Assembly: GCA_040384705.1 (NCBI GenBank)
Contig: JAZKIU010000001.1
Span: forward strand, 229,675 to 293,674
Direction of reading: 5' to 3'
Source: Patescibacteria group bacterium
GTDB lineage: Bacteria > Patescibacteriota > Minisyncoccia > Phycocordibacterales > Phycocordibacteraceae
Length of the DNA: 64,000 nucleotides
Program-made: the position numbers and the translations under genes
Notes under the pieces: model-generated
What the model saw: the letters and a program-made list of their open reading frames with translations, nothing else
What the model was told of the DNA's origin: nothing
Databases searched by the model: none
Shown: positions 13,315 through 36,611 of the stretch, piece after piece
Numbering within the stretch: position 1 is the stretch's first letter
Layout of the letters: each line of letters opens with the position of its first letter

Positions 13315-13371
13315 TGCGGCCTTCATTGTGGTTGAGCTTTACTAACTCTCTTATCCACTAGCAATAACCGC

Positions 13372-13911
13372 ATGAAGAAATTTACCGTTGGAGTATTTGC
13401 CGCAAGAGAGGATGCGGAGAAAGCTATTAACCGCCTGCATAACGAGCTCACTATCCCGAACGAGGATATCTCCTACCTCTATCGCAACAGCGAGGGAGAG
13501 GTCAGGGAAGTGCATGCTGAACACATAGCGACCTCGACACCGGTCGAAGGCGCAGGAAAGGGCGCGGCAGTGGGAGGCGCGATAGGCGCGCTCGCAGGTA
13601 TCGCTGCGGTTGCAGGCGTCATCCCTGTAATTGGACCATTGTTCGCTGCAGGCCCGCTCGCCGTCGCGCTTGGCCTCACGGGCGCAGTGGGCACGACCGC
13701 TGCAGGAGCCATGACCGGAGCTGCCGCAGGCGGGCTCATCGGTGCGCTCGCGAACATGGGCATCGGCGAGGAGCGTGCCCAGCGCTACGCGGACCGCGTG
13801 AGTGCGGGCGACATACTTGTCGCAGCGTATGCGGACGAGGGCACCGATGTACAGTCCCTCCTTACGGACGCAGGAGCGCTTGAAACCGAGACATATAGCC
13901 TGAAGGTCTAA
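13372..13911 (+). CDS. YflT-like general stress protein with a glycine-zipper membrane segment (GSP17M family)
   Basis: The N-terminal VGVFAAREDAEKAINRL matches the YflT domain. A central Gly/Ala-rich glycine-zipper follows. The C-terminus carries ERAQRYADRVSAGDILVAAYAD. Confidence 0.75.
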   Translation: MKKFTVGVFAAREDAEKAINRLHNELTIPNEDISYLYRNSEGEVREVHAEHIATSTPVEGAGKGAAVGGAIGALAGIAAVAGVIPVIGPLFAAGPLAVALGLTGAVGTTAAGAMTGAAAGGLIGALANMGIGEERAQRYADRVSAGDILVAAYADEGTDVQSLLTDAGALETETYSLKV

Positions 13912-13943
13912 TAATCTCGTGAGTTCAGGGCGGCATAGATGAT

Positions 13944-16202: not shown

Positions 16203-16236
16203 GGGTAGCGTTCTTCAGGAAAACTTTATCTTCGCT

Positions 16237-16261
16237 CCAGGCCCCGCAACGCGGGGTCTGG
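16237..16261 (+). terminator. Hairpin after the surface protein gene, with a weak T-tract
   Basis: CCAGGCCCCGC-AAC-GCGGGGTCTGG. Confidence 0.45.
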
Positions 16262-16273
16262 TAGTATCGGTGG

Positions 16274-17938: not shown

Positions 17939-17975
17939 AAAGTCCGCCAGGGCCCGAGGGCGCCTGGCGGAGAAG
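17937..17975. terminator. Bidirectional terminator, with the purB side the stronger
   Basis: CCGCCAGGGCCCGAGGGCGCCTGGCGG is flanked by AAAA on the plus strand, which reads as a T-run on the minus strand. Confidence 0.6.
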
Positions 17976-17979
17976 TCGA

Positions 17980-19389
17980 TCACAGGATGGGTGCGGGATT
18001 GTAGCCGGCTGCCGCTCCATGGCGACTGATGACGAGGTCGGCGAAGTGCATGACCGTGTCCGCTTGGTCCTCCGCCAGGCCCGTATTCGGCACGATGAGG
18101 GCGTCTATCTCCTCGGCAGACAATGGGAAGGACGAATCCATCCCGAGAAGTCTGGAGAACACCGAAGCATCCTCGCCTTGCCGTATTCGCGTGAGAGCGG
18201 CCGTCGAGTAGCGCTTGATAAGTGCATGCGCGTCCTCGCGTCCCATTCCCTTGTCGATGGCGGCCATCAAGATGGCGGTTGTAGAAAGGAAGGGGAGTTC
18301 AGTCGCAAGTTCTCGCTCGATGATGGCCGGAAATACTGCCATCTCATCGAGCACGGTCATCGTCGCCTCGAAGAGTCCATCGAGTGCGAAGAACGCATCG
18401 CTTAGAAGGATGCGTCGCGGAACAGAGCAGCTCACGTCGCCCTCATACCACTGGTGACCCATGAGGCCGCTTGCCATGGTCACGTAGCCCGAAAGGATGT
18501 TCAGAAACCCGCCGATGCGCTCGCACGTCCGCATATTCATCTTGTGCGGCATTGCGGAGGAACCGGTCTGGCCCTCCTTGAACCCCTCGGTCACTTGGGA
18601 TTGGCCCGCCATGAGCCGCATCGTGCTGGCGAAGTTAGCCGGCGCAGACGCGAGCTGTGCTAGGGCCGCGACAACCATGAAGTCGAGGGAGCGAGGGTAG
18701 ACCTGGCCCACCGCGACGAGCGTGCGTCCGAAACCGAGATGCTCGCGCACCACGACTTCCAGTTGTAGAGCGTTATCCGTACCCAGGAGTGTTTGCATGT
18801 CCTGCTGGGTTCCCACGGGCCCTTTCATGCCCCGAAGCGGATAGGTCGCGATGATGGATTCCAGATGCTCGAACGCGCAGAGGAATTCCTCCATCCACAT
18901 CGCGAAGCGCTTGCCGAGCGTCGTGGCTTGCGCCGGCACGTTATGGGTCCGTCCGCATATGACCATCGCCTCGTATTCATTCGTCCGGTCTCGTAGTCGC
19001 CGCAGTATCGCGACGGCTCGATTCCGCACGAGCTCAAGGGAGCGGTGAATTTGCACCTGCTCGACGTTGTCGGTCAGGTCGCGTGACGTCATGGCTTCGT
19101 GGATATGCTGGCATCCTGCGAGCGCGTTGTACTCTTCGATACGCGCCTTCACGTCGTGTCGCAGAATGGCTTCTCGAGCAGCAATAGAGGCCAGGTCGAC
19201 GACCTCGACGTTCTTTTCGTACGCGATGATGTCGTCGTCCGAGATGTCTCGTCCAGCCGCGCGCTGGGCCTTAAGCACCGCAAGCCACAGGCGCCGCTCG
19301 GCGATTATCTTCCCGCGCGCTGACCAGATGGCCTTCATGGCTTCGCTCGCATACCGTTGAGCGAGCACGTTCTCGATGACTTCGGTCAT
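17980..19389 (-). CDS. purB: Adenylosuccinate lyase
   Basis: Full-length lyase_1 fold with fumarate-lyase signature regions. The start is trimmed to MTEVIENVLAQRYAS, which has a GGAAAGGA ribosome-binding site. Confidence 0.9.
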   Translation of the reverse strand: MTEVIENVLAQRYASEAMKAIWSARGKIIAERRLWLAVLKAQRAAGRDISDDDIIAYEKNVEVVDLASIAAREAILRHDVKARIEEYNALAGCQHIHEAMTSRDLTDNVEQVQIHRSLELVRNRAVAILRRLRDRTNEYEAMVICGRTHNVPAQATTLGKRFAMWMEEFLCAFEHLESIIATYPLRGMKGPVGTQQDMQTLLGTDNALQLEVVVREHLGFGRTLVAVGQVYPRSLDFMVVAALAQLASAPANFASTMRLMAGQSQVTEGFKEGQTGSSAMPHKMNMRTCERIGGFLNILSGYVTMASGLMGHQWYEGDVSCSVPRRILLSDAFFALDGLFEATMTVLDEMAVFPAIIERELATELPFLSTTAILMAAIDKGMGREDAHALIKRYSTAALTRIRQGEDASVFSRLLGMDSSFPLSAEEIDALIVPNTGLAEDQADTVMHFADLVISRHGAAAGYNPAPIL

Positions 19390-19496
19390 GATACCTATCC
19401 TTTCCCGTGTGCTTCCGGAAGTATTCCGGTTCCGCAGGGATAGTACCTTTTCCGAAATGTTTAGCAATCGCCCGTGTGAGGTACAATCAGTAGAAT

Positions 19497-20498
19497 ATGC
19501 AGTTTTCGTTCTACCGACCGAAGCGGGATATACGCCGCAAGCTCATCCTGTGGGGCATAGGGGCGATAGCGCTCATCGTCACGTTCCTCCTTGTCTACTC
19601 CAACATGTTCGGGCCGGTCGCGCAGTATGCAGAACCCGAGGAATTCATTGTGAATCCGGACACTCCCATCGAGGAAGTGGCGTCGGGCCTCAAGGAATTG
19701 AATTTCATAAAGAGCGAGCTCGCGTTCCGTATGGCATATGCGCTAACGGGCCACGAAGATATCGTTGAGGGAGGGTACAAGATAAGCCGGAGCCAGGACG
19801 CGTGGACCCTCGCGGAAGCGTTCGCGCGTCCCCCGTACCTTGCGTGGGTCACCATCCCGCCCGGGCTGCGCAAGGAGCAGATAGCGGAACTGCTGCAGAG
19901 GAAGCTCGGATGGACCGATGAGCAGGTCGAGAAGTGGGTGACGGTCGATACCGCTCCTGATGCCACCCTCATCGAGGGCGTGTACTTCGGCGATACGTAC
20001 CTCATCGCGTCCGACCAATCACCGGAGCAAGTAGCGCAGCGGCTGCGCGGCCGGTTCGAGGAAGTCTTCGCGCCGTACGCGGATCAGGCTGCCGACATGG
20101 ACCTCTCGTGGAACGAGCTCATCACGATGGCGTCACTCGTCGAGCGCGAGTCTGCGAAGAATGACAAAGCGCTCGTCGCAGGCATCATGTGGAATCGTCT
20201 CGATACTGGCATGCGGCTCCAGGTGGACGCTACCTTCCAGTACATCCGCGGGAAGAAAGGGAACTGGTGGCCAACACCGACCAAGGATGATAAATACATC
20301 GACTCACCATTCAATACGTATAAATACGCGGGACTCCCGCCGCACCCTATTGCTAACCCGAGCCTTGCTTCGATAAAAGCGGTGCTTGAGCCCGAGAACA
20401 CCGACTGCCTCTACTACCTCCATGATATGGATGGGGTAATACATTGCTCCGCGAACTATGCGGGGCAGCTGAGGAACGTTGATACGTATTTGCGATAG
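19497..20498 (+). CDS. mltG: Endolytic murein transglycosylase MltG (YceG family)
   Basis: It has an N-terminal TM anchor and YceG signature regions (FQYIRGKKGNWWPTP, YNTYKYAGLPPHPIANPSLASIKAVL). Confidence 0.85.
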   Translation: MQFSFYRPKRDIRRKLILWGIGAIALIVTFLLVYSNMFGPVAQYAEPEEFIVNPDTPIEEVASGLKELNFIKSELAFRMAYALTGHEDIVEGGYKISRSQDAWTLAEAFARPPYLAWVTIPPGLRKEQIAELLQRKLGWTDEQVEKWVTVDTAPDATLIEGVYFGDTYLIASDQSPEQVAQRLRGRFEEVFAPYADQAADMDLSWNELITMASLVERESAKNDKALVAGIMWNRLDTGMRLQVDATFQYIRGKKGNWWPTPTKDDKYIDSPFNTYKYAGLPPHPIANPSLASIKAVLEPENTDCLYYLHDMDGVIHCSANYAGQLRNVDTYLR

Positions 20499-20520
20499 GT
20501 TCGATACCTAGTCTGCCAGC
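20499..20520 (+). repeat. Copy 1 of a 22-nt direct repeat GTTCGATACCTAGTCTG(C/T)CAGC that resembles a tRNA T-loop and 3' end
   Basis: A 22/23-nt match to 29315..29336. It starts 1 nt after the mltG stop codon. Confidence 0.7.
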
Positions 20521-20524
20521 AAGA

Positions 20525-20560
20525 ACTCCGCGCCTTTCAGGGCGCGGAGTGCGAGGTCTT
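20525..20560 (+). terminator. Hairpin downstream of mltG
   Basis: ACTCCGCGCC-TTTCAG-GGCGCGGAGT. Confidence 0.5.
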
Positions 20561-20563
20561 CCT

Positions 20564-20857
20564 TCAACGTAGGTCACCTTGTCCTTCGAGGAGGTTCAAG
20601 GCTGCATTCCGAATGCGGATCTTCATGGCGTCGTCCACCGCGTCCGGATAGCCGGCGAGAAGCCGGACGGCCTCGATGGGGATGATCGCACCGAGTGTTC
20701 GTCCGTAGCGGTGAAAGCCCGTGATGCTCTTGAGCCCGAAGGCATCTTGGAGAATGTCTGGGAGGTTCCTTCTCCCCTCAGAGGTGGAGCAGAAACGTGC
20801 GGGGAATGCGGGAGTGGTACTCCCAAGCAACCACTGTTTACGAGTTCCCGAGGACAT
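20564..20857 (-). CDS. Hypothetical small protein, about 97 aa. The family is unclear and the C-terminus might be AbrB- or ribbon-helix-helix-like.
   Basis: A ribosome-binding site AGGAG sits 7 nt upstream of ATG 20857. The C-terminus reads GAIIPIEAVRLLAGYPDAVDDAMKIRIRNAALNLLE. A competing plus-strand ORF 20579..20875 has no ribosome-binding site. Confidence 0.35.
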   Translation of the reverse strand: MSSGTRKQWLLGSTTPAFPARFCSTSEGRRNLPDILQDAFGLKSITGFHRYGRTLGAIIPIEAVRLLAGYPDAVDDAMKIRIRNAALNLLEGQGDLR

Positions 20858-20935
20858 GAGCGTTCTCCTGAATGAGTCTAGACAGAACCTAACATGGATT
20901 GCATAAGGGTTCCAACCTCGTGCCAGATCCTCGCA

Positions 20936-20980
20936 AAAATAAAAAAAAGACCGCCACACGGATGTCGTGGGCGGTCTTTT
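20936..20980. terminator. Bidirectional rho-independent terminator
   Basis: AAAAAAAAGACCGCCACACGGATGTCGTGGGCGGTCTTTTGGG. Confidence 0.75.
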
Positions 20981-20999
20981 GGGCGGTGACCGATTCGGG

Positions 21000-21209
21000 T
21001 TAGACCAAAGTCATGTATCCGCGCGGGATACTGACCTGGGAAGGATCGATCCCATGCTTGTGCAGGAAGTTCAGCAGGTCTTGAAGCGTGATGCTGTCGC
21101 GGTTGCCGTGGAAACCGGGATTCGTTCCAAGAGCCCTCTTTCCCTTCGCGCTCCCGCTTTTCAGCGGAGCGCGGATATAGAATTTGTCGGTGCTTCGTGC
21201 GCGCGGCAT
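21000..21209 (-). CDS. Small conserved basic protein, 69 aa, with a C-terminal HeH or Rho_N-like helix pair
   Basis: A perfect ribosome-binding site GAGGAGGG sits 6 nt upstream of ATG. The protein is MPRARSTDKFYIRAPLKSGSAKGKRALG...ITLQDLLNFLHKHGIDPSQV. A terminator follows. Confidence 0.55.
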   Translation of the reverse strand: MPRARSTDKFYIRAPLKSGSAKGKRALGTNPGFHGNRDSITLQDLLNFLHKHGIDPSQVSIPRGYMTLV

Positions 21210-21455
21210 TTCGCCCTCCTCGCAGTTGGTACAGTTCGGTATCTACTATACGCATTATATTGACTTTGTCAATCACGACGGTTCTCGCATCGGGCGCAAC
21301 CACATCGTAGCTTTCGCGTACTCAGGTAAGGCAGGACGGGGTCGCGCTGGATTCCTTTATATAGCTAATGGATTGACGCTTCATCTATATAAAGGTATTC
21401 TATTTTCAATTGCCCGCGGGGCCTTTTTATTTTATTCGCAAGCCAGATTCGTCAT

Positions 21456-23243
21456 ATGGAAACCCGGAATATCGCCATCATCGCCCACGTGGATCACGGA
21501 AAGACCACGCTCACCGACGCCATCCTCAAGGAAACGGGCGCCGCAGCCGCTGGCGTGTCCATGGACTCCAACGCGCTCGAGCACGAGCGTGGTATCACCA
21601 TCTACTCCAAGAACGCCTCGGTGGAGTACAAGGGAACGAAGATAAACATCGTCGACACCCCGGGACACTCCGACTTCGGCTCTGAAGTTGAGCGCGTGCT
21701 CCGTTCCATCGATTCGGTGCTCCTCATCGTGGACGCGCAGGAAGGTCCTATGCCGCAGACCCGCTTCGTACTTAAGAAGTCGCTCGAGCTCGGCCTCAAG
21801 CCTATCGTGGTGCTCAATAAGATAGACAAGCCAGCAGCGGACCCCGATCGCGCCGAAGAGCAGGTGCTTGAGCTCTTCCTCGAGCTCGGTGCTTCTGATG
21901 AGCAGTCCGACTTCAAGGTGGTATATGCCATCGGCCGCGAAGGCGTCGCCATGAAGAAGCTCGACGACGAGCGCGTGAACCTCGAACCGCTTCTCGATAC
22001 CGTTCTTGAGAACGTACCGGCAGCGTCTGAAGCTGGGGACGAAGCGAAGCCCCTCAAGCTCCAGTCATTCAATCTCGCGTACGATAACTTCCTCGGCCGC
22101 CTCGCCATCTGCCGCGTATACGAGGGAACCCTCACTCCGGGACAGAACGTCATCGTGAAGAAGCCCGACGGCACCGCACGTAACGGAAAGACGACGAAGA
22201 TATTCACCTTCAAGGGTCTTGAGCGCATCGAAGCTACGGAGGCGACCGCAGGCGACATCGTCATCGTCGCCGGTCTCCCTGACGTATTCATCGGAGAGAC
22301 CATCACTACCGACCCTGCTATGGAGCCGATGCCCGCTATCGCCATCGACGAGCCGACCATCACAGTGAACTTCCTCGTGAACAACTCACCATTCGCCGGA
22401 CGCGAAGGGAAGTACGTGACGAGCCGCCAGCTCCGCGAATACCTCGAGCGCGAGCTCGAAGTGAACGTGGGACTCAAGGTGGACTTCGTTTCCCCTGACG
22501 CCTTCAAGGTTTCGGGCCGCGGTGAGCTCCACATCGCTATCCTCCTCGAGAACATGCGCCGTGCAGGATACGAGATGCAGGTCTCCCAGCCGCAGGTAAT
22601 CATCCGCGAGGAGGAGGGCCAGAAGCTCGAGCCGTACGAGGAGGTCACTATCGATACCCCTACCGAATTCCAGGGCGCGATCATCGAGCGCCTGGGTACC
22701 CGCGCATTCGTGCTCATGAACCTCGTGCAGCACGGCGACACGGTGCGCCTCACGCTCGAGGGCCCTACTCGCGGCCTTCTCGGATACCGCAACCAGTTCG
22801 TCGTCGACACCAAGGGCGAAGGGATACTTTCAACGCGCGTGCTCGGCTTCAAGCCGTACGCAGGCGAGATAAAGAAGCGCCAGGTGGGCTCCATGATCTC
22901 CATGGCGACCGGCAAGGCGCTCGGCTACGCGCTTTGGAGCATGCAGGAGCGTGGCGTCCTCTACATCACCCCAGCTACCGAAGTGTACGAAGGCATGGTG
23001 GTGGGCAATACCTCGAAGGGCGAGGAGATGGTGGTGAACCCGACCAAAGGAAAGAACCAGAGCAACGTCCGCTCGTCCGGTATGGACGAGGCCATCAACC
23101 TCGTGCCTGCATTCACCCTCTCCATCGAGCGCGGCCTCGAAGTCATGACCGACGACGAGTACCTCGAGATCACACCGCTATCGGTGCGTCTGCGTAAGCA
23201 GGGGCTTACTGAGAGCGATCGCTCAAAGAACCGCCGCTCATAG
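21456..23243 (+). CDS. typA: Translational GTPase TypA/BipA
   Basis: It carries IAIIAHVDHGKTTL, DTPGHSDF and NKID G-motifs. The domain order and length (595 aa) are EF-G-like. Confidence 0.95.
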   Translation: METRNIAIIAHVDHGKTTLTDAILKETGAAAAGVSMDSNALEHERGITIYSKNASVEYKGTKINIVDTPGHSDFGSEVERVLRSIDSVLLIVDAQEGPMPQTRFVLKKSLELGLKPIVVLNKIDKPAADPDRAEEQVLELFLELGASDEQSDFKVVYAIGREGVAMKKLDDERVNLEPLLDTVLENVPAASEAGDEAKPLKLQSFNLAYDNFLGRLAICRVYEGTLTPGQNVIVKKPDGTARNGKTTKIFTFKGLERIEATEATAGDIVIVAGLPDVFIGETITTDPAMEPMPAIAIDEPTITVNFLVNNSPFAGREGKYVTSRQLREYLERELEVNVGLKVDFVSPDAFKVSGRGELHIAILLENMRRAGYEMQVSQPQVIIREEEGQKLEPYEEVTIDTPTEFQGAIIERLGTRAFVLMNLVQHGDTVRLTLEGPTRGLLGYRNQFVVDTKGEGILSTRVLGFKPYAGEIKKRQVGSMISMATGKALGYALWSMQERGVLYITPATEVYEGMVVGNTSKGEEMVVNPTKGKNQSNVRSSGMDEAINLVPAFTLSIERGLEVMTDDEYLEITPLSVRLRKQGLTESDRSKNRRS

Positions 23244-23245
23244 AG

Positions 23246-23274
23246 AAAGCCGAGCTTAGCTCGGCTTTTTCTTT
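23246..23274 (+). terminator. Rho-independent terminator after typA
   Basis: AAAGCCGAGCTTAGCTCGGCTTTTTCTTT. Confidence 0.8.
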
Positions 23275-23383
23275 GCATTGTGGAGCAGGCATATCTCTGC
23301 TAGGTTACGTCGGGTTTCACCGAATCAATCAAGCGGGTAGATGAAGGCATTGTGCCTAAAATGCCCGAAGGGAGGTCTTTGTC

Positions 23384-23722
23384 ATGACTCAAGGCACGTT
23401 CGACGACCGATTCCAGGCGCTCATGCATCAGAGACGTCAAACGTCCCTCGAGGAGCAGCAACTCCGCGGTGTCGAAGAAGTGGGTTTCCGCGTGGCTATC
23501 TCGATGGATGAATCGGAGGAGGGCCGCCAAGAGCTTCGATTGGGCGAAAACACCCTCATCGCCTGGTTCCGCTCTGGCTGCAAGAACAAGGGCGGAGCGG
23601 AGTGCACCGCAATGGGTGTGGAGCTCATCCGTCCGCCGGAACTGACTCACGAGCAGTACGCGGTGGCGAAAACCTGGCTCGCGGGACTGATCGAAGCTCA
23701 TGTGTGCCAGCATCTTCTATAA
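23384..23722 (+). CDS. Hypothetical protein, 112 aa
   Basis: A ribosome-binding site GGGAGG sits 8 nt upstream. A hairpin follows. No family is recognised. Confidence 0.5.
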   Translation: MTQGTFDDRFQALMHQRRQTSLEEQQLRGVEEVGFRVAISMDESEEGRQELRLGENTLIAWFRSGCKNKGGAECTAMGVELIRPPELTHEQYAVAKTWLAGLIEAHVCQHLL

Positions 23723-23820
23723 AGTTGAAGAAAGGGACGGTCCATCAGGGCCGTCCCTTCACCATTTCTATATATAGCTTTTCATACCGTATAAGGGTTA
23801 TTAGTCACTAACGAAATTCC

Positions 23821-23973
23821 ATGTTCTACACCATCGCAGTGATACTTCTGGTGCTCTGGCTTCTCGGCCTCGTGACGTCGTACACGCTTGGTGGATTCAT
23901 CCATCTGCTTCTCGTCGTCGCGGTCATCATGGTCCTGGTGCGTCTCATCCAGGGCAGAAACCCGATAGCCTAA
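23821..23973 (+). CDS. lmo0937-family small membrane protein, 50 aa
   Basis: MFYTIAVILLVLWLLGLVTSYTLGGFIHLLLVVAVIMVLVRLIQGRNP matches the conserved lmo0937 small-protein family. It is under 60 aa and so absent from the track. Confidence 0.7.
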   Translation: MFYTIAVILLVLWLLGLVTSYTLGGFIHLLLVVAVIMVLVRLIQGRNPIA

Positions 23974-23979
23974 AACTGT

Positions 23980-24283
23980 ATGCCGCGCGGGGATAAATCA
24001 GCGTACTACCGACAAGCAGAAGCGCCAAGCCGAGTATATCGAAGAAGGATATGAGGAGCGGGGCGTACCTGAAAAGGAAGCTGAAGCCCGCGCATGGGCC
24101 ACGGTGAACAAGATGACCGGAGGAGGCAAGAAGAGCGGTTCAGGAAGAGGGAAGAAGGTGAACAAGGCGCCCGCGAAGAAAGGCGGCCGCAAGGGCGGGG
24201 CAGCGAGTGCTAAGCGCTCTGCGGCCGCGAAGTCCAAGTCAGCTAAGAAAGCCGCCGGTACGCGGGCGAGACAGAAGAGCTGA
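23980..24283 (+). pseudogene. Small Lys/Gly-rich conserved stress protein whose reading frame is interrupted by a +1 frameshift near codon 9. In actinobacteria the family is often annotated as a plasmid stabilization protein.
   Basis: ATG 23980 encodes MPRGDKSAY, then the frame breaks around 24004-24010. Frame +2 continues as TDKQKRQAEYIEEGYEERGVPEKEAEARAWATVNKMTGGGKKSGSGRGKK...KKAAGTRARQKS and ends at 24283. A strong terminator follows. Confidence 0.5.
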
Positions 24284-24296
24284 TACGGACGTAAGG

Positions 24297-24338
24297 GAAA
24301 CAACGAGGCACCGTCATGGCGGTGCCTCGTTGTTTTTG
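24297..24338 (+). terminator. Strong rho-independent terminator
   Basis: AACAACGAGGCACCG-TCATGG-CGGTGCCTCGTTGTTTTTGGG. Confidence 0.85.
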
Positions 24339-24429
24339 GGCGAGGGTGGTAACATCCGGCCAGAAGAAGGAGTTCTACGGTATAGAGCCGCGCTCTTCGA
24401 CACTCTAACCCCTTATCTAGGAGCATGTG

Positions 24430-24975
24430 ATGACGGACGTTCCGCTTACGCCTGAGCAACTGCTCCGCAGAGCGAAAAGCCAGGTAACTGCACCGGCTTC
24501 CGGCCGCATCCTGGTGATGCTGTGCCCGGAAATGCCCGAATGGAATACCTTCGACGAGCTCGTCTCGCTCGGAGCGCCCAGTACCGATGCCGGATGCCGC
24601 TCCCGCATGTGGGAGGGAGCCCGGACGTGCTGCGAGCATAGGAAGGCAGGACGACCGCTTATCCTGCTCAACTACGGGCTCGGCAGCCATACGTATCTCG
24701 ATGACCCCCTCGCGTGGGGCCGGAAGGAGGGATTGGTTCCTGCGTGCGTCCATACATGCCTCGGCATTTCGGCTGCGCACCCCAATCTTCCGATTGACCG
24801 GTTTAAGCTCCATAGCGAACCGGGATTCAGCCTCTTCGTCCCGATCGTATACGACCATGAGAGCGAACGCCGCAACTTCCGTATCGGGTACAACGGGATC
24901 CGGCGCACGCTCGAGTGCTCATGGGCGGGATATGGGATAAGCGGGCACAACTGGTCCGTGTTCGAGGCCGCTTAG
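24430..24975 (+). CDS. Hypothetical Cys-rich protein, 181 aa
   Basis: A ribosome-binding site AGGAG sits 6 nt upstream. The protein has eight Cys, including a CC pair and a CxxxC. A terminator follows. No family is recognised. Confidence 0.5.
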   Translation: MTDVPLTPEQLLRRAKSQVTAPASGRILVMLCPEMPEWNTFDELVSLGAPSTDAGCRSRMWEGARTCCEHRKAGRPLILLNYGLGSHTYLDDPLAWGRKEGLVPACVHTCLGISAAHPNLPIDRFKLHSEPGFSLFVPIVYDHESERRNFRIGYNGIRRTLECSWAGYGISGHNWSVFEAA

Positions 24976-24986
24976 TTGCCTGATTC

Positions 24987-25025
24987 GACGCCTCGCCCTG
25001 CTTTCGGGCGGGGCGTCATTTGTTT
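24987..25025 (+). terminator. Rho-independent terminator
   Basis: GACGCCTCGCCC-TGCTTTC-GGGCGGGGCGTCATTTGTTT. Confidence 0.8.
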
Positions 25026-25214
25026 ACACACCTTGCAAAACAAGGAGGTAAGTGCTATAGTTCCCCCACAACGGTTACTCCATAGTGTTTGACGTCTTGA
25101 GAGCGAACTCATCAGGACCAGCCAAAGCGGAAAGCGCATCGGCTTGAAACTCTCGAGGACGGTTGATTACTCAACACGAAGAGCGATTACGCTCTCGTTC
25201 AAACAGATACATAC

Positions 25215-26624
25215 ATGCAAAATAGCAATTTCTCTTCACGCGATAAGCGTGGAGGCAATCGGTCGGGTGGTTCATCCTCCCGTCCTAGCCGCAGCGGCTC
25301 CAGCCGTGGTGGCGCAAGCAACGCGTACGAAGCGGGCATGCAGTTCGCTCTTGCGAACGGCGCTCCTCGTCGTCCTCAGCGTAGTTTCGGACCGCCTCGT
25401 GGCGGTGGCGGCTCCCGTGGCCCCTCGTCCTCTTCGCGTCCTTCGTTCGACCGTGGCCCTCGTGGTGGCGGTTCCTCGAACCGTTCCGGCGGCAAGCGCG
25501 GCTTCCAGGAGATGAACGTCGACCTGAATAAGCTCATCAACAAGGCCTCAGCACCTGAAACGGTAGAGGCATACGTACCCGAGCACGCATTCGCGGGCTT
25601 CGCTATCGATGAACGCCTCAAAGCGAACATCGCAAGCAAGGGATACGTCACCCCAACCCCTATCCAGGACCAGTCCATACCGCACGTCCTCAAGGGGCTC
25701 GATGTGGTTGGTCTCGCGAACACGGGTACTGGCAAGACAGCGGCATTCCTCATTCCGCTCATCGACAAGGTGCTCAAGTTCCGTGCGCTCGGCCAGACTG
25801 AGCGCGTGCTCATCATGGTTCCTACCCGCGAGCTCGCCATCCAGATTGAGCAGGAGTTCTTCGGCTTCGCCAAGGGCCTCCAGCTCAATTCAGTGACCAT
25901 CGTCGGAGGAGCTAACATCTCTCCGCAGATTCGTGTCCTTCGCCGCAACCCTTCCTTCGTCATTGGTACGCCCGGACGTCTCAAGGACATCATGGAGCGC
26001 AAGGAGCTCGACCTCTCCGACTTCGGTACCGTTGTTCTCGACGAGGCCGATCGCATGCTCGACATGGGATTCATCAACGATATGCGTTTCATCATGGGCT
26101 TCATGCGGAACGTCCGTCACACGCTCTTCTTCTCGGCAACGCTGTCGAAGGATATCGAGCGCCTCATCGGAGAGTTCCTCAAGGATCCGGTCCGCGTCTC
26201 GGTGAAGACCCGCGAGACCTCGCACACCATCGACCAGGACGTCGTGCGCGTCGCGCCTTCCGAGAAGCTCAACAAGCTCGTTGACCTTCTCCAGGCTCCG
26301 GACATGGAACGCGTGCTCGTCTTCGGACGCACCAAGCACGGCGTGGAGCGCCTCGCGAAGGACCTTCGCCAGGCCGGCATCAAGGCCGATTCCATCCACG
26401 GCAACAAGACGCACTCCGCGCGCCAGAAGGCCCTTGGGCTCTTCAAGCAGTCGCATGTGCGCGTGCTTGTGGCAACTGACGTCGCGGCTCGTGGTCTCGA
26501 CATCTCGGGGGTGACGCACGTCATCAACTTCGACCTGCCGGGCACCTACGAGGATTACACCCACCGCATCGGCCGCACTGGTCGCGCGGGCATGGGTGGG
26601 AAGGCGCTTACGTTCATCTCATAA
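25215..26624 (+). CDS. DEAD-box ATP-dependent RNA helicase with an N-terminal Arg/Gly/Ser-rich low-complexity extension
   Basis: It carries Q-motif, GTGKTAAF, DEAD (VLDEADRML), SAT and HRIGRTGR motifs. About 100 aa of RGG/SR-rich sequence precede the helicase core. A long 5' UTR separates the gene from the previous terminator. Confidence 0.9.
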   Translation: MQNSNFSSRDKRGGNRSGGSSSRPSRSGSSRGGASNAYEAGMQFALANGAPRRPQRSFGPPRGGGGSRGPSSSSRPSFDRGPRGGGSSNRSGGKRGFQEMNVDLNKLINKASAPETVEAYVPEHAFAGFAIDERLKANIASKGYVTPTPIQDQSIPHVLKGLDVVGLANTGTGKTAAFLIPLIDKVLKFRALGQTERVLIMVPTRELAIQIEQEFFGFAKGLQLNSVTIVGGANISPQIRVLRRNPSFVIGTPGRLKDIMERKELDLSDFGTVVLDEADRMLDMGFINDMRFIMGFMRNVRHTLFFSATLSKDIERLIGEFLKDPVRVSVKTRETSHTIDQDVVRVAPSEKLNKLVDLLQAPDMERVLVFGRTKHGVERLAKDLRQAGIKADSIHGNKTHSARQKALGLFKQSHVRVLVATDVAARGLDISGVTHVINFDLPGTYEDYTHRIGRTGRAGMGGKALTFIS

Positions 26625-26642
26625 GGGATCGAACGACGCCAC

Positions 26643-26680
26643 ACAAAAGCCGCGGCACTGCCCGCGGCTTTTGTGCTATT
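26643..26680 (+). terminator. Rho-independent terminator
   Basis: ACAAAAGCCGCGG-CACTGC-CCGCGGCTTTTGTGCTATTT. Confidence 0.8.
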
Positions 26681-26739
26681 TGACTCCTAGAATGAGTACC
26701 GCACTATGTATCTAGATGGTTTAAACTCGGAGAACGCAG

Positions 26740-27186
26740 ATGCCGAATCGCCCGCTTGTGCCGAAGGATTTCAGTTTCACCTTGCTTGACGCAATGAGTA
26801 GCGAGTTTGAGGGAGGGCAAGACTTCCAACTCATCGCCCTTCATTTCATGGAGCATGTCACGGAATGGAAGGAACGCGCGAAGACTCGCGGCCTTGAGCA
26901 TTTCATTCCGGAGGATGCAGAACCTTTTATGGAAGGGATCGCGTGCGCACTCAAACGGTCGATGAAGGGCAGCGCCGATCTCGCGCCGGTTCCAAGCATA
27001 CCGGTTCCTGATGCGTACGCTGCGGCTGAGGCCTTCGCGAAGCGGCTGCTCGCTTTCGACGTAGTCCGAGCTTCGACCGAAGAACGGTCAGGTATTCGGA
27101 AATTCCTCGCCGATTTCCACAGTGGCATGATGACGAATCTGGAAGATACTTTCTTTCATGGTCGGCGTCGGCGCCATGCCCTCTGA
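26740..27186 (+). CDS. Hypothetical protein, 148 aa
   Basis: A ribosome-binding site GGAG sits 8 nt upstream. A terminator follows. No family is recognised. Confidence 0.5.
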   Translation: MPNRPLVPKDFSFTLLDAMSSEFEGGQDFQLIALHFMEHVTEWKERAKTRGLEHFIPEDAEPFMEGIACALKRSMKGSADLAPVPSIPVPDAYAAAEAFAKRLLAFDVVRASTEERSGIRKFLADFHSGMMTNLEDTFFHGRRRRHAL

Positions 27187-27196
27187 CTGATGCGGC

Positions 27197-27230
27197 AAAG
27201 ACCCCAGGCGCTTGCGCCTGGGGTTTTGGT
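27197..27230 (+). terminator. Rho-independent terminator
   Basis: AAAGACCCCAGGCGC-TTG-CGCCTGGGGTTTTGG. Confidence 0.85.
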
Positions 27231-27270
27231 ATACTAAGGGCTATTGGAAATAAAAGGGCGTAATACTTAT

Positions 27271-27969
27271 ATGGAAAAAGCAGATACTGGTTCGTTCATG
27301 GAGAAGTACATGACCCCTATCGCGGTCATAGTGGGTGCGCTTATCATCGCAGGTGCGTTCGCGTTCGGTCGCGGGGATGGCATGCCTACGCAACCAGGGG
27401 AGCAGGCAGCGAAGGCAGTTAACATCAAGGATGTGAAGGATAACGGTCCGTTCCTGGGCGATAAGAACGCGCCGGTCGTCATGGCGTACTGGTTCGATTA
27501 CCAGTGCCCGTTCTGCAAGCAGTTCGAGCAGACGGCGATGGTGCAGATATACGACACCTATGTCGCGACCGGGAAAGTGAAGATCCTCATCAAGGACTTC
27601 CAGTTCCTCGGGCCTGATTCAGAAGCAGGCGCGCTCTACTCGCGTGCCGTATGGGAGGCGCATCCAGAGCTCTATTACGAGTGGTACAAGGCGATGTTCG
27701 TCGCGCAGGACGAAGAGCATGGCGGGTTCGGCGATGAGAAGAGCGTCGATACGCTGACTCGTGGTGTCGCCGGCATCGACGGCGACCGCGTCGCAGCGCT
27801 CGTAGCGTCCAATCGCGCCAAGTACTTGGAGGCCATCGCAGCTGACCGTGCAGAAGGTTCCGCGCTTGGCGTCACCGGCACCCCAGCGATGATAGTCGGG
27901 AAGTCGCTTCTCGCAGGCGCCCAGCCGTTCGCATCGGTCGCAGCGTTGATTGATGCAGAATTGAAGTAA
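27271..27969 (+). CDS. DsbA-like thiol:disulfide oxidoreductase with a thioredoxin fold and a membrane-anchored N-terminus
   Basis: It has a CPFC active site (YWFDYQCPFCKQFE) and an N-terminal TM anchor. The start is uncertain among TTG 27244, ATG 27271 and ATG 27298. Confidence 0.8.
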   Translation: MEKADTGSFMEKYMTPIAVIVGALIIAGAFAFGRGDGMPTQPGEQAAKAVNIKDVKDNGPFLGDKNAPVVMAYWFDYQCPFCKQFEQTAMVQIYDTYVATGKVKILIKDFQFLGPDSEAGALYSRAVWEAHPELYYEWYKAMFVAQDEEHGGFGDEKSVDTLTRGVAGIDGDRVAALVASNRAKYLEAIAADRAEGSALGVTGTPAMIVGKSLLAGAQPFASVAALIDAELK

Positions 27970-27986
27970 TCAAAGACGCTTTTAAC

Positions 27987-28016
27987 AAAATGGCCTTCCT
28001 ATAGGAAGGCCATTTT
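27987..28016. terminator. Rho-independent terminator
   Basis: AAAATGGCCTTCC-TATA-GGAAGGCCATTTTG. Confidence 0.8.
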
Positions 28017-28038
28017 GCGTATACGCTATACTTCCTTT

Positions 28039-28233
28039 ATGAAAATCGAATGGAACACCGTGAACTGGTACTCGCAGGCAGTCGCTATCGTGCTCTTCGT
28101 CCTCGTGTTCGCGCTCGGGTTCTGGCTCGGGACCCAGTACCAGATGAGGGCATTCGAGAATGCCATCAAGGCCGAGCTCGAGGAGATGATGACGCAACCT
28201 GCTCCTTCTTCAGGCGAAGAAGCCGCTTCCTAG
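28039..28233 (+). CDS. Possible small membrane protein, about 64 aa
   Basis: It has one TM segment (AVAIVLFVLVFALGFWLG) then a polar tail. There is no clear ribosome-binding site. The track ORF starts at TTG 28015 inside the terminator. Confidence 0.35.
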   Translation: MKIEWNTVNWYSQAVAIVLFVLVFALGFWLGTQYQMRAFENAIKAELEEMMTQPAPSSGEEAAS

Positions 28234-28892
28234 GCCTTCTCGTTCACGCCGCGGAGGAAGAGGTATCCGCCGATGAATATGATGACGCCGCCCACGAGCG
28301 GCATGCCAATCGTGATGAGGAGCGAGCCTTCGGAGAAGTCGAGGAGCGAGCCGAAGAGGACGAGTGTCGCTGACATCACGGCCGAGAGCGGAAGCAGTAT
28401 GGAGATGAATATCGGATAGGGAAGGCGGGAGAGGCCGGTGCCGTACGAGATGAGCTCAGGGAGCGCGAAGCAGGTGAGGCACATATGGATGAAGCCTTTT
28501 ACCGTGCCTACATGCTCCACGACGCGGGACAGGAGGCCGTGCTCGTTCCCGGCTATCATCTTGCGTACGAAGGGGTACCCGAACCTGCGTGCGAGGAAGA
28601 ATGCACCCGTATATCCGAGGAAGTCACCGATGAGCACATACAGGAGCCCTGGCCAGAACCCGAAGAAGAGGCCGACGATAGGATAGAGGGGGGCGCCCGA
28701 TAGCGGGGCGATGATGACCGTCGATGCCTTGAGGAGTATGAACACGAGCGGCGCGAAGGGGCCCGACGCGAGCACGTACGCCTTCAGGGCTTCCATATCG
28801 ACGAAGAACGCTATGAGGACGAGGACGCCGATGGTGACGAGCAGCCCGATAACTCCCAACTGCTCGCTTATCTTGGCGTGGCGGATATTCAT
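28230..28892 (-). CDS. TVP38/TMEM64 (DedA-like, SNARE-associated) family membrane protein
   Basis: It has multiple TM helices and the conserved G(F/Y)xxGxxxAR motif region (FLGYTGAFFLARRFG). The start is trimmed to MNIRHAKI. Confidence 0.8.
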   Translation of the reverse strand: MNIRHAKISEQLGVIGLLVTIGVLVLIAFFVDMEALKAYVLASGPFAPLVFILLKASTVIIAPLSGAPLYPIVGLFFGFWPGLLYVLIGDFLGYTGAFFLARRFGYPFVRKMIAGNEHGLLSRVVEHVGTVKGFIHMCLTCFALPELISYGTGLSRLPYPIFISILLPLSAVMSATLVLFGSLLDFSEGSLLITIGMPLVGGVIIFIGGYLFLRGVNEKA

Positions 28893-28910
28893 GTGTATGG
28901 AGTATAAACT

Positions 28911-29327
28911 ATGGACATGGATATACGTGAATTCGAGGCGATAGCCGCAGAAGAGTGGAAGAAGGTGCCGGAGCGGTTCGCAGGCTCCGTGAAGAATGTA
29001 GCCCTCCTCATCGAAGACGAGCCGAGCGAGGCCGTACGGGAGGAAGAAGAGCTCGAGCACGAAGAGACCCTGCTCGGCCTGTATCACGGCGTTCCGCTCT
29101 CGGAGCGCGGCAGCGACTACGGCATCGGCGGCACCATGCCGGACACTATCACCCTCTATAGACTACCCATCATCGAGGAAGCGGAGGAGATGGATAGGGA
29201 ATTCCGGGATGCGATACGCATCGTGATACGCGAGACCATATGGCACGAGCTCGGCCATTATTTCGGTATGGATGAGCCGCATGTGCAGAACAGGGAGGAG
29301 GAGGGGACTAATAAGTTCGATACCTAG
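28911..29327 (+). CDS. Zincin-like metallopeptidase family protein (PF06262/DUF1025 type)
   Basis: The C-terminal HExxH-like motif WHELGHYFGMDE and the overall length match a family conserved in actinobacteria. Confidence 0.75.
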   Translation: MDMDIREFEAIAAEEWKKVPERFAGSVKNVALLIEDEPSEAVREEEELEHEETLLGLYHGVPLSERGSDYGIGGTMPDTITLYRLPIIEEAEEMDREFRDAIRIVIRETIWHELGHYFGMDEPHVQNREEEGTNKFDT

Positions 29328-29336
29328 TCTGTCAGC
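29315..29336 (+). repeat. Copy 2 of the 22-nt direct repeat GTTCGATACCTAGTCTGTCAGC
   Basis: A 22/23-nt match to 20499..20520. It overlaps the last codons and the TAG stop of the metallopeptidase gene. Confidence 0.7.
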
Positions 29337-29774
29337 TCAATTAGGCAGCTCCTTGTTGGGAGCGTACGTGTCTAGAACGCTTTCGATCATGAGGGATATC
29401 TCCTCGATCGTTGAGTCGGACTTATGGATGAATTCACGGACGCCGAGCGCGTGAGCTTTTTCGCGATCGCTTTCTGAACTGAGGTTGGAGAATACGATGA
29501 CCGGAATGTCTTTAAAGGTGGGGTCTTCTCCTTGCATGTGCTTAAGGAATTCAAACCCGGTCATGCCCGGCAACAGGATGTCGAGCAATATAACATCAGG
29601 CTTCTGCTTACGAACTTCCTCGACCGCTTTTTCACCATCAAAGGCTGAAGTAATAGCGACGCCGCGCGTCTTGAGCGCAGAAAGCTTATTGGTAAGGAGG
29701 TTCTGGAGTAGCCAGTCATCCTCGACGATGAGCAGGTGCCTGCCCGCAAGAGAGCGTTCCTCGGTAGTAGACAT
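29337..29774 (-). CDS. Orphan single-domain response regulator (CheY-like receiver only)
   Basis: The phospho-acceptor pocket is present (DD...D in LLIVEDDWLL/ILLDILLPGMTG, with K near the C-terminus). There is no output domain and no histidine kinase nearby. Confidence 0.8.
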   Translation of the reverse strand: MSTTEERSLAGRHLLIVEDDWLLQNLLTNKLSALKTRGVAITSAFDGEKAVEEVRKQKPDVILLDILLPGMTGFEFLKHMQGEDPTFKDIPVIVFSNLSSESDREKAHALGVREFIHKSDSTIEEISLMIESVLDTYAPNKELPN

Positions 29775-29914
29775 GGGTTAATTATAGCTCAGAGGGAAGG
29801 GTAGGCCCTTCCAGCAGGTGAGATGTTGGTATGACACGAGGAAGAATATAATCATTTTCCAACTATTCTGGAGAATCACTGAGGGTTACGTCCTATTCCC
29901 GAAGGTTCGAGGCA

Positions 29915-29943
29915 TTGACTTGCAAAAGGATATATGATATCTT
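29915..29943 (+). promoter_or_regulatory. Candidate sigma70-type promoter (TTGACT, 17-nt spacer, TATCTT)
   Basis: The -35 and -10 elements are separated by the canonical spacing. It sits upstream of a hairpin and terminator module. Confidence 0.4.
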
Positions 29944-29949
29944 CTATGT

Positions 29950-30076
29950 AATCGTGCGTATGAGACGAGCTGTTTACGGCTTACCTCCATCACTTGTGAT
30001 GTAGCATTTTTACAACTAAGCCGTAAACAATTCGTCTTGTGCAAGAAGAAAAGCCGCTCCCGGGAGCGGCTTTTCC
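29950..30076 (+). ncRNA. Candidate small RNA or cis-regulatory leader. It has a long imperfect hairpin (12-bp perfect arms GTTTACGGCTTA/TAAGCCGTAAAC extendable to about 19 bp) with a nested CATCAC/GTGATG mini-palindrome, and ends in an intrinsic terminator.
   Basis: The structure and terminator AAAAGCCGCTCCCGGGAGCGGCTTTTCC are read directly from the sequence. No plus-strand gene upstream could use that terminator. The downstream gene starts about 40 nt after it. Confidence 0.3.
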
Positions 30077-30117
30077 TGTGCTACCCTTACGGCCATAACC
30101 ATAGAGCGTCATTACGT

Positions 30118-30744
30118 ATGAGCATGAAGATAGTCATGTGGGTGCTGGGAGGGATCCTTATCGCGGGCGCAGGCACGTATGCAGCGATGAGTATGGACGG
30201 AGAGGCGCAGGTCGAGAAGGATACTGCCGATACCAACACTACTGGCGTTACCTCCATCTCCGCACTGCTCTCGCTTCCCATACCCCAGAAATGCGAGTTT
30301 ACGGACGAAACAGGGGCTGCGAAGACGTCCGGCACGGTATATGTCTCAGGCGGCAAGATGCGTGGCGATTTTGTCGCGAATGCCGCAGGCACCGAGTACC
30401 ATGCGCACACCATCATGGACGGTGCGACCGCGCATTCGTGGGTAGATGAGACGAAGATAGGAGTGAAGAGCGCGATGAGCGTATCGAGCGATACCGCAGT
30501 CTCGTCTAACCAGGGACTCGACGCGTCGAAGAACCTGGAATATCGCTGCGTACCATGGATCCCTGATACGGCCGTGTTCGAGCTGCCAACGAACATCTCC
30601 TTCATCGATGCTGGCATGTCCGCAGGAGCAGGAGCGAGCGGGTCGGCGGGCGCCGGAATGGACGCATCGGTGAGCGTATGCGCGCAGTGCGAGAAGGTTC
30701 CGGAAGCATACCGTGCGCAGTGCCGCGTCGCAGCGGGCTGCTAA
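30118..30744 (+). CDS. Hypothetical secreted protein with a Cys-rich C-terminus
   Basis: It has a signal or anchor sequence MSMKIVMWVLGGILIAGAGTYAA and a C-terminal CAQCEKVPEAYRAQCRVAAGC. The start is trimmed from the track ORF at 30037 to ATG 30118, after the terminator. Confidence 0.55.
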   Translation: MSMKIVMWVLGGILIAGAGTYAAMSMDGEAQVEKDTADTNTTGVTSISALLSLPIPQKCEFTDETGAAKTSGTVYVSGGKMRGDFVANAAGTEYHAHTIMDGATAHSWVDETKIGVKSAMSVSSDTAVSSNQGLDASKNLEYRCVPWIPDTAVFELPTNISFIDAGMSAGAGASGSAGAGMDASVSVCAQCEKVPEAYRAQCRVAAGC

Positions 30745-30749
30745 CGCAA

Positions 30750-30778
30750 ATAAAAAGACCGGACGCAGGGTCCGGTCG
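30750..30778 (-). terminator. Rho-independent terminator for the minus-strand small membrane protein gene
   Basis: The hairpin GACCGGAC-GCAGG-GTCCGGTC is followed by a T-run on the minus strand. Confidence 0.7.
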
Positions 30779-30793
30779 GGTATGGAGGGAGAA

Positions 30794-35918: not shown

Positions 35919-36611
35919 ATGGAAACCCAGAAGCCAGTAGCGGTCTTCGATATAGACGGCACGCTGTTCCGCTCCTCGCTCCTGATAGAGCTCGTTGAAG
36001 AGCTCATCAAGCGGGAGATATTCCCAGCAGACGCTCGCAAGAGCTACGAGACCTCGCAATTAGAATGGCTGAACAGGAAAGGGGAGTACGAGCCTTTTAT
36101 AAAGAAAGTAGTGCAGGCGTTCGGCAAGCATGCGAAGGGTGCGCCGTATGGCGATGTCGCGGACGTTGCGGGAGAGATAATAGAGTCGAAGAAGGACAGG
36201 ACGTATCGCTATACCCGCGACCTCGTCGATGATTTGAAGGCGAAGGGCTACTTCCTCCTCGCTATCTCGCACTCACCGAAGTTCATTGTGGACGGTTTCG
36301 CGTACGAACTCGGGTTCCACAAGTCCTATGGCACGTTCTACGAGACCGGGGCCTCTAACCGCTTCACGGGAGAGATAGCTGATGAGCACCTCATCATGAA
36401 CAAGAGCGCAGTGCTCAAGCGTGCGGTCGAGAAGGAGAACCTCACGTTCAAGAATTCCTATGGAGTGGGAGACACGGAGAGCGACATCTCCATGCTTACG
36501 ATGGTCGAGAATCCTATCGCCTTCAATCCAAACCGTCTTCTCTATCGGCATGCGAAGAAGCATGGGTGGCCTGTTGTGGTTGAGCGGAAGGATGTGATTT
36601 ATGAGATATAG
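35919..36611 (+). CDS. HAD-superfamily hydrolase (HAD-IB/PSPase-like)
   Basis: It carries motif I VAVFDIDGTLF and downstream HAD motifs. Confidence 0.75.
   Translation: METQKPVAVFDIDGTLFRSSLLIELVEELIKREIFPADARKSYETSQLEWLNRKGEYEPFIKKVVQAFGKHAKGAPYGDVADVAGEIIESKKDRTYRYTRDLVDDLKAKGYFLLAISHSPKFIVDGFAYELGFHKSYGTFYETGASNRFTGEIADEHLIMNKSAVLKRAVEKENLTFKNSYGVGDTESDISMLTMVENPIAFNPNRLLYRHAKKHGWPVVVERKDVIYEI

Follow-up and report, generated by a model that had tools for sequence, protein, structure and literature searches.

Short codirectional repeats delimit single-gene cassette arrays that turn over between related Patescibacteria and may act as integron-like recombination sites

We analyzed a 64,000-nt stretch of the genome of a Patescibacteria group bacterium (assembly GCA_040384705.1, contig JAZKIU010000001.1, positions 229,675 to 293,674; hereafter the window), in which a short direct repeat, here termed M1, lies at the ends of two genes, mltG and a zincin-like metallopeptidase gene. 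We favor, with a probability of roughly 0.6, the reading that M1 is one of a family of short, unstructured sites, specific to a Patescibacteria/Parcubacteria-like clade and all pointing the same way, that form the boundaries of mobile single-gene cassettes, and that recombination inside the sites adds, removes, and exchanges these cassettes in an integron-like manner. The two repeats of the window appear to be the proximal sites of two cassette arrays, in a system that appears to be undescribed so far; we found no account of these repeats in the literature, whether searching by topic or by the sequences themselves. The evidence comprises the site family and its polarity, the arrays, their turnover between congeners, breakpoints that fall inside the sites, and cassette edges that are identical in different arrays.

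The window contains two M1 sites and one related M2 site

An earlier note on this DNA had reported two non-random copies of the repeat GTTCGATACCTAGTCTG(C/T)CAGC, and both were confirmed: a search of both strands of the window for the 22-nt motif with up to three mismatches returned these two matches only, against 0.00 expected from 100 shuffles. Copy A (20499-20520) reads GTTCGATACCTAGTCTGCCAGC and starts 1 nt past the TAG stop codon of mltG (20496-20498). Copy B (29315-29336) reads GTTCGATACCTAGTCTGTCAGC, and its internal TAG (29325-29327) is the stop codon of the Zincin_1 gene. The likeness between the copies spans 26 nt (20498-20523 versus 29314-29339), outside which the sequences are unrelated. 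At this length, copy A is the forward-strand M1 site GGTTCGATACCTAGTCTGCCAGCAAG (20498-20523), the array-proximal site of the mltG-typA cassette array, and copy B is the forward-strand M1 site AGTTCGATACCTAGTCTGTCAGCTCA (29314-29339) at the zincin gene end.

A profile built from 19 M1 instances taken from other genomes recovered copies A and B (E = 7e-10 and 2e-7, respectively) and no other significant match in the window. The claim that there is no other copy therefore needs to be divided: it stands for M1 within three mismatches, but a divergent M2-type site of 31 nt, homologous to M1, occupies 20908-20938. Mismatch, gapped, and profile scans of the window found no degenerate M1 copies beyond this M2 site. 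One candidate (36608-36633, 73% match) was rejected because its score was at chance level. The sequence ATAGGGCCAAAACCTAGTCGGCCATT follows a HAD-family hydrolase gene (35919-36611), and its 13-mer ACCTAGTCgGCCA is M1-like, at chance level in the scans; this gene is missing from the same position in one relative (L026). The guanine-plus-cytosine (GC) content of the window is approximately 59%, which is high for Patescibacteria.

Cassettes at the mltG-typA locus differ between congeners

The genes for a PIF1-like helicase, MltG, TypA, and the zincin share 88-92% nucleotide identity among the window genome and two relatives of the same genus, L023 and L064. The core gene mltG (YceG family; 19497-20498, forward; Pfam YceG, 1.3e-63) is approximately 89% identical in these two relatives, and at its end the identity holds through ...CCAGCAA and then ends. 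Core synteny resumes at the typA promoter (21373-21401, forward), which is 98% identical in both. Between these points, the window carries M1, cassette W1, M2, and cassette W2 in that order; L064 carries M1, cassette Y (a forward-oriented 160-aa membrane protein), M2, W1, and M2; and L023 carries M1, cassette X (a small Cys/His-rich protein), and M2. The M1 site at copy A is found at the same place in L023/L017 and L064. It is absent from the more distant L029/L030, which have neither site nor cassette here, the typA promoter lying 13 nt past the mltG stop codon.

In the window, W1 (20524-20907, reverse) contains a terminator hairpin (20525-20550), a 97-aa open reading frame (ORF; 20564-20857), and a 32-nt module (20876-20907). 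The M2-type site that follows (20908-20938, forward, GGTTCCAACCTCGTGCCAGATCCTCGCAAAA) is divergent, is the best match to the M2 profile in the window, and is orthologous to the L064 site at 7950. W2 (20939-21365, reverse) contains a terminator (~20945-20980), a 69-aa ORF (21000-21209), and a promoter, TTGACA-16-TATAGT (21245-21272); it is specific to the window genome, with no counterpart in L023, L064, or L029.

The collinearity breakpoint between the window and L064 falls inside copy A, at approximately 20510-20520. Alignment of the window with the M1 side of L064 holds until ~20528, and alignment with the W1 side of L064 starts at 20517; this overlap of the two alignments places the breakpoint that removes cassette Y inside the M site. 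Each M1 copy of the window is the exact point at which collinearity is lost between close relatives, in line with the suggestion of a recombination or deletion hotspot in the earlier note. Since the copies are endpoints of collinearity that are followed by exchangeable cassettes, they are best read as attachment (att)-like recombination sites. Two independent runs (L065, L066) show the L064 arrangement again, and the left junction of the window recurs in a Logan contig (L013; SRR26324625). This contig is identical to window positions 11453-20522, its final base being that of M1 copy A, indicating that the assembly graph branches at the repeat.

An adenylosuccinate-lyase-like gene (17980-19467, reverse) lies between the PIF1-like helicase gene and mltG in the window genome only, these two genes being adjacent in L023 and L064. 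Its edges carry no M site, which points to an indel of another kind.

W1 also occurs elsewhere. Its protein has no Pfam family and nine homologues, and the cassette is found as the second cassette at mltG in L064 and, with different neighbors, in other arrays of L067 and L068. Both of its edges are the same in the window, L064, L067, and L068: on the left, ...CAGCAA(G/A) is followed by AACTCCGCGC, the terminator of the cassette, and on the right the cassette gives way to GGTTCCAA. W1 follows M1 in the window and M2 elsewhere. The approximately 15 nt in the middle of the M site, between the two edge sequences (CATCGTCCCAGACNNN), vary with the genome and not with the cassette.

M2 sites structure polar arrays of single-gene cassettes

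M2 is a 31-nt repeat, GGTTCCAACATCGTCCCAGACCCCCAGCAAT, that separates cassettes and is homologous to M1. The two align with a single indel of 5-6 nt and have in common GGTTC on the left and CC(T/C)AG...CCAGCAA on the right. Hybrid M2 sites with an M1 right half are present at three loci (L009, L016, and L020; for example GGTTCCAACATCGTCCCAGTCTGCCAGC in L020).

Scans allowing up to nine mismatches detected 44 M2 sites in 18 loci and none in shuffled sequence, for example eight in L023, five each in L004 and L006, four of a variant form in L029, and the one of the window. All 44 lie on the strand of the local M1 and to its right, where between zero and seven unrelated single-gene cassettes follow. 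From one site to the next, the 41 intervals measure 165-1639 bp (median 506); in 24 of them the longest ORF is oriented against the site, and in 15 it is codirectional. Site polarity is therefore independent of gene direction, which argues for a DNA-level element that is polar across the array rather than an RNA or promoter element; the proposal of an RNA-processing signal at 3' ends fails on the same observation, as M2 sites keep one orientation whichever way the adjoining genes run. Across approximately 300 kb of locus sequence, M sites are confined to cassette junctions and share one orientation.

Twenty-six of 31 cassette ORFs have no Pfam family, and the other five encode a PurA-like protein, a family 2 glycosyltransferase (GT2), DUF218, an AAA ATPase, and DUF5680. 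Between M1 and a conserved HhH-GPD gene, the M23/alkA-like loci of L021, L003, L015, and L002 carry one, one, one, and three non-homologous cassettes, respectively. Cassette-specific sequence extends from just past ...CAGCAA to ...GGTTCCAA, and most of the inspected cassettes have their own terminator hairpins. Where an array ends beside a reverse-oriented core gene, only GGTTCCAA(C) is left, abutting the stop codon of that gene (L067, and the alkA-like gene of L003 and L021).

Many cassettes that are otherwise unrelated share a module of 32 nt, gtctagacagaacctaacatggattgcataag, immediately to the left of M2, at 82-92% identity. It occurs in the window (20876-20907) and in L002, L003, L004, L007, L011, L016, L029, L064, L067, and L068. 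Read on the cassette strand, the module and the GTTGGAA of M2 form TTGGAA-18-TAGGTT preceded by TGn; judging from this sequence, the module and M2 could be a shared cassette promoter. Folding of M1, M2, and the 69-nt long form on either strand was no better than that of shuffles (z = 0.05-0.6). An attC-like hairpin over the 32-nt module and M2 was considered and rejected, given the lack of a fold signal and the contradiction of one apparent compensatory change by other instances.

In IMG/VR, 33 viral contigs of high GC content (L031-L063) each have a single copy of the M2 20-mer GTTCCAACATCGTCCCAGAC, within one conserved ORF. The product of this ORF (reverse strand, ...VVWDDVGTFDG...DIVTAGYPCQ) resembles a C5 cytosine methyltransferase, and its flanks are unrelated to the arrays. 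Full M2 is absent from IMG/VR, and the match is probably a coincidence.

M1 occurs beside core genes of other Patescibacteria and not in tRNA genes

The exact 20-mer GTTCGATACCTAGTCTGNCA was searched for in one genome per species across 185,579 species genomes (GTDB). This search returned 12 loci, all from Patescibacteria metagenome-assembled genomes labelled as Saccharibacteria, Paceibacterota, or Parcubacteria, with 49-57% GC; a metagenome scan added nine loci. M1 follows genes for an M23 peptidase (L002, L003, L009, L015), alanyl-tRNA synthetase (AlaRS; L004, L012), AtpC (L016, L020), uracil-DNA glycosylase (UDG; L006), YchF (L007), a membrane protein (L001), and MltG (L017/L023, L064). It lies 0-14 nt past a codirectional stop codon in eight gene families, and this codon is TAG in seven of seven families, against a base rate of approximately 40%. 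The exceptions are two antisense sites, which precede the start codons of murA (L005) and tpiA (L008) by approximately 30 nt and show that M1 is not obligatorily tied to gene 3' ends. IMG/VR contained no M1, and neither PLSDB plasmids nor INPHARED phages gave a match to the sites. Inspection by eye led us to reject M1 as a promoter (TTCGAT-17-T...), its -10 element being inconsistent, and as a dif- or lox-like dyad, there being no inverted arms.

Several tests contradict the suggestion that the motif is a tRNA 3' end. None of the 12 genome loci or nine metagenome loci is a tRNA, and ARAGORN detected no tRNA in any related locus when run on the window and more than 40 loci. The sole tRNA of the window is a tRNA-Ser (GGA; 48104-48189), the 3' end of which is unrelated to M1. 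The apparent T-arm of M1 folds no better than shuffles (z = 0.2), and Rfam searches of the whole window at the gathering threshold, and around the copies and cassettes at E-value thresholds, gave no match to the motif above threshold.

The DNA between the two copies is core genome

The earlier note had also raised the possibility that the copies are attL and attR of one element, and synteny argues otherwise. The gene order PIF1-like helicase, mltG, typA, DUF5670, DEAD-box helicase, DsbA-like, VTT, and zincin is kept in five relatives (L023, L064, L029/L030, L010, and L026); the 8.8-kb block is therefore core genome, not an island. In agreement with what had been noted, Pfam scanning showed no integrase in this block, only housekeeping genes. 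Moreover, L029/L030 have the copy at the zincin end and lack the one at mltG, with the block between intact.

The zincin gene end is the probable ancestral location of M1

The Zincin_1 metallopeptidase gene is a core gene (28911-29327, forward; Pfam, 5.7e-23), of which the last four codons and the stop codon lie inside M1 copy B. The C-terminus of this family, ...EGTNRF(D/E)x and the stop codon, is conserved across 120 homologues, and the T-loop-like GGTTCGA at the gene end arises because (C/G)GG-TTC-GA(T/G) encodes its conserved Arg/Gly-Phe-Asp/Glu. Versions of M1 at this position are graded across relatives: GGTTCGATATCTAGtctgccagc in L023, GGTTCGATCCCTAGtctgccagcaat in L064, GGTTCGATACCTAGtctgccagcaat in L010, GGTTCGAGTCCTAAtctcccagc in L029/L030, and, in L026, GGTTTGATTCCTAG followed by unrelated sequence, without the M1 tail. 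There is a resemblance between the left half of M2 and the zincin gene's natural 3' end. Copy B at the zincin end is probably the ancestral M1 location, and M1 appears from these sequences to be a hybrid, in which the left half comes from that natural gene end and the right half from a site of the M2 type. Such a hybrid would be expected if a first insertion had taken place at the end of the zincin gene.

To the right of copy B, synteny also breaks. The window and its closest relative, L023, are collinear from the PIF1-like gene to the zincin gene, and homology ends at 29336, the last base of copy B. Beyond its zincin gene, L023 has a PurA-like gene and at least six M2-bounded units up to the contig end. 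In the window, this position holds variable DNA (29337-30793) that is common to no relative and comprises a response-regulator gene (29337-29774, reverse), a hairpin locus, and a 235-aa ORF, and synteny with L026 resumes at approximately 30845. From this synteny break, we infer that the DNA to the right of copy B may have cassette status. Homologues of the response regulator (L069-L071) lie in unrelated contexts without M sites. The hairpin locus (29906-30037) has a promoter-like TTGACT...TGATAT followed by a hairpin with a 21-bp stem (29963-29983 and 30017-30037); it matches no Rfam family and, by its sequence features, may be a small RNA.

Other features of the window

Three further loci of the window were recorded. 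A 752-aa protein (13944-16202) with PG_binding_1 and F5_F8_type_C domains contains three tandem 288-nt repeats (14454-15317; 70% identity). On the reverse strand at 2510-4588, a Y-family DNA polymerase with IMS domains adjoins a LexA-like S24 peptidase; the two are an SOS-type mutagenesis pair in a very small genome. A bacterial class A RNase P RNA (120 bits) is encoded at 59372-59703, also on the reverse strand.

Discussion

Each array starts at M1 beside a core gene, usually right after its stop codon, and continues as an alternation of cassettes and M2 sites. Most cassettes have an ORF and, where inspected, a promoter and terminator of their own. We propose a model in which cassettes would be gained, lost, and swapped through recombination inside M1 and M2, as integron cassettes are at attI and attC. 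M1, at the proximal end of the array, would play the part of attI, and M2, carried by the cassettes, that of attC. We infer that the M sites are the crossover points of a dedicated site-specific recombinase encoded in trans. In its fullest form, the model would describe an integron-independent cassette capture system in Patescibacteria, with several arrays per genome beside core genes, self-expressed single-gene cassettes, asymmetric and unstructured sites of 26-31 bp, and a recombinase encoded elsewhere, possibly of an unexpected type; this fuller version we advance tentatively, the odds being somewhat against it.

Several observations weigh against recombination at the M sites as we picture it. 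Precomputed Pfam annotations of the genes called up to 10 kb from the arrays of L023, L026, L029/L030, and L064 include no Phage_integrase or other recombinase, and Pfam scanning of 40 window ORFs showed none either. The 31 cassette ORFs likewise include no recombinase by Pfam. The sites have neither dyad symmetry nor a fold and are unlike lox, dif, and attC. Plain excision and insertion does not explain the presence of an intact M1, with its zincin-derived left half, at the ends of the mltG, M23, AlaRS, atpC, UDG, and YchF genes. To the right of copy B (29337-30793 included), scans found no further M site despite the synteny break. Homology at times runs past M into shared terminator or promoter modules, which also fits homologous recombination. 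All data are from metagenome assemblies, in which 31-nt repeats can give mis-joins, and scans for exact patterns inflate the apparent conservation of M1; the sites are still present, however, in a sample drawn by zincin and W1 protein homology and thus free of pattern bias.

Given that mosaicism extends past M, homologous recombination of the type seen in promoter/stem-loop (PeSL) cassettes is the main rival. The same arrays would then require no dedicated enzyme: M2 would be the most conserved part of a terminator-M-promoter module, and the cassettes would be exchanged by general recombination, either homologous or through microhomology, with natural transformation as the probable supply of DNA, much as in the PeSL cassettes of T4-type phages or the minimal mobile elements of Neisseria. 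Modules of 60-126 nt (32-nt module, M2, and terminator region) that are 82-92% identical between unrelated cassettes fit this account, as do two unrelated cassettes with an identical terminator module after M, a middle part of M (~15 nt) that follows the genome rather than the cassette, and the absence of a recombinase beside any array of L023, L026, L029/L030, or L064. We nevertheless consider it unlikely. M1 and M2 share only approximately 7-12 contiguous nt, too few for RecA-type exchange, whereas the difference between the window and L064 maps to an M1 x M2 junction, and many sites are a bare 31-mer without flanking modules. Homologous recombination has no need of the strict one-way polarity, independent of gene direction, and leaves the repeat at every cassette edge without an origin.

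Three further explanations fare worse. That M is a DNA-level signal carried along with horizontally acquired DNA, such as an uptake sequence, a fork or transcription barrier, or a C-rich tract for Rho loading, would suit a short, sequence-conserved, intergenic motif that is often next to terminators and the C-rich, G-poor top strand of M2, and Patescibacteria are thought to depend on DNA uptake. Known uptake sequences, however, occur on both strands, also inside genes, and at about one per kb genome-wide, whereas core 10-kb blocks hold no M site and the arrays hold one per cassette edge in one direction; cassette edges inside the site would also be left unexplained, and we regard this alternative as improbable. 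An RNA-level 3'-end element, whether a mimic of a tRNA T-arm and acceptor or a 3'-untranslated-region signal for processing, stability, or translation termination, would account for the stop codons 0-14 nt before M1 in eight gene families and the prevalence of TAG (7/7 families versus ~40%); in addition, GTTCGATAC fits the T-loop consensus and TAG followed by G can make a 4-bp stem. Yet there is no fold beyond that of shuffles (z = 0.2) and no Rfam match, the stem is missing in about half of the instances, the sites near murA and tpiA (L005, L008) are antisense and upstream, in most cassettes the M2 sites are on the side that is not transcribed, and GGTTCGA at the zincin end is explained by coding, which makes this account highly improbable. 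We give scarcely any credence to a decayed attL/attR pair copied from a tRNA 3' end and flanking an 8.8-kb integrated element: the two copies are direct and separated by 8.8 kb, and the start of the motif is T-loop-like, but the block is conserved core synteny in five relatives and contains no integrase, the 20-mer is in no tRNA gene across the 185,579 species genomes, and L029/L030 have the zincin-end copy and the intact block without the mltG copy.

Recombination at M sites most closely recalls integrons, which likewise consist of arrays of mostly single-gene, mostly ORFan cassettes of approximately 0.5 kb with one same-orientation site each and a distinct proximal site, show fast cassette turnover between close relatives, and have cassette edges inside the site. 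All 44 M2 sites conform to such an array. In contrast to integrons, no IntI gene adjoins the M arrays, and a genome has several such arrays, which start from the 3' ends of ordinary core genes. The M sites are 26-31 nt long, sequence-conserved, and unstructured, whereas attC sites are imperfect hairpins of 57-141 nt with R''/L''-L'/R' boxes; M sites lack inverted boxes, although their GTTGGAA fits the GTTRRRY core at six of seven positions. Integron cassettes are promoterless under a common promoter (Pc), while W2 has its own TTGACA-16-TATAGT promoter and a terminator, and ORFs of M-array cassettes run in both orientations. The M system therefore works like an integron but departs from the definition of one in three respects: it has no adjacent IntI, no attC hairpin, and no promoterless cassettes.

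Other known systems share individual features. In composite islands of the staphylococcal cassette chromosome (SCC) at rlmH and in streptococcal cis-mobilizable and integrative mobilizable elements (CIME/IME), elements are also stacked at the 3' end of a housekeeping gene, with direct repeats derived from the gene end and many units without a recombinase. The left half of M1 equals the zincin coding end, yet the same M1 also follows unrelated genes, and no recombinase-bearing unit was seen; M units are single genes of ~0.5 kb rather than elements of 5-60 kb, M1 lies at many core genes, and no Ccr or integrase was seen. T4 PeSL cassettes and Neisseria minimal mobile elements are likewise small unrelated ORFs with their own promoter and terminator, swapped between short intergenic repeats or conserved flanks, but the M arrays are chromosomal, their polarity is fixed whatever the gene direction, and the repeat core is not a promoter or stem-loop. 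The pdif (XerC/D) modules of Acinetobacter plasmids are similar in that 28-bp sites flank small swappable modules and, as proposed here for M, the recombinase is encoded elsewhere; they differ in that pdif has an 11-6-11 dyad and alternating orientation, whereas M1 and M2 have no dyad and are all direct. The tRNA att sites of islands are also direct repeats of ~20-25 nt that resemble a T-loop and acceptor strand, but M1 has no tRNA gene and no integrase, brackets core genome, and owes its likeness to Arg/Gly-Phe-Asp codons. Repetitive extragenic palindromes and bacterial interspersed mosaic elements (REP/BIME; RAYT-associated) are hairpin palindromes, often in inverted pairs, unlike the unfolded and uniformly direct M copies. 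The length of M fits the repeats (23-47 nt) of clustered regularly interspaced short palindromic repeats (CRISPR), but M intervals are 165-1639 bp with genes, promoters, and terminators, versus spacers of 26-72 nt.

Patescibacteria (candidate phyla radiation) have genomes of approximately 0.6-1 Mb with few recognized mobile elements, and the turnover of their accessory genes is poorly understood. If the proposed model is true, site-delimited cassettes explain strain-level variability in this clade, with ORFan genes stacked at set points beside essential genes, and the integron concept widens beyond IntI and attC. Sites that are short, unstructured, and directional suggest that the recombinase recognizes them in an unusual manner, and such an enzyme would be an interesting tool for inserting small cassettes. 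The M repeats also break metagenome assemblies of the clade, and the sites offer a handle for recovering its flexible gene pool by polymerase chain reaction or read mining.

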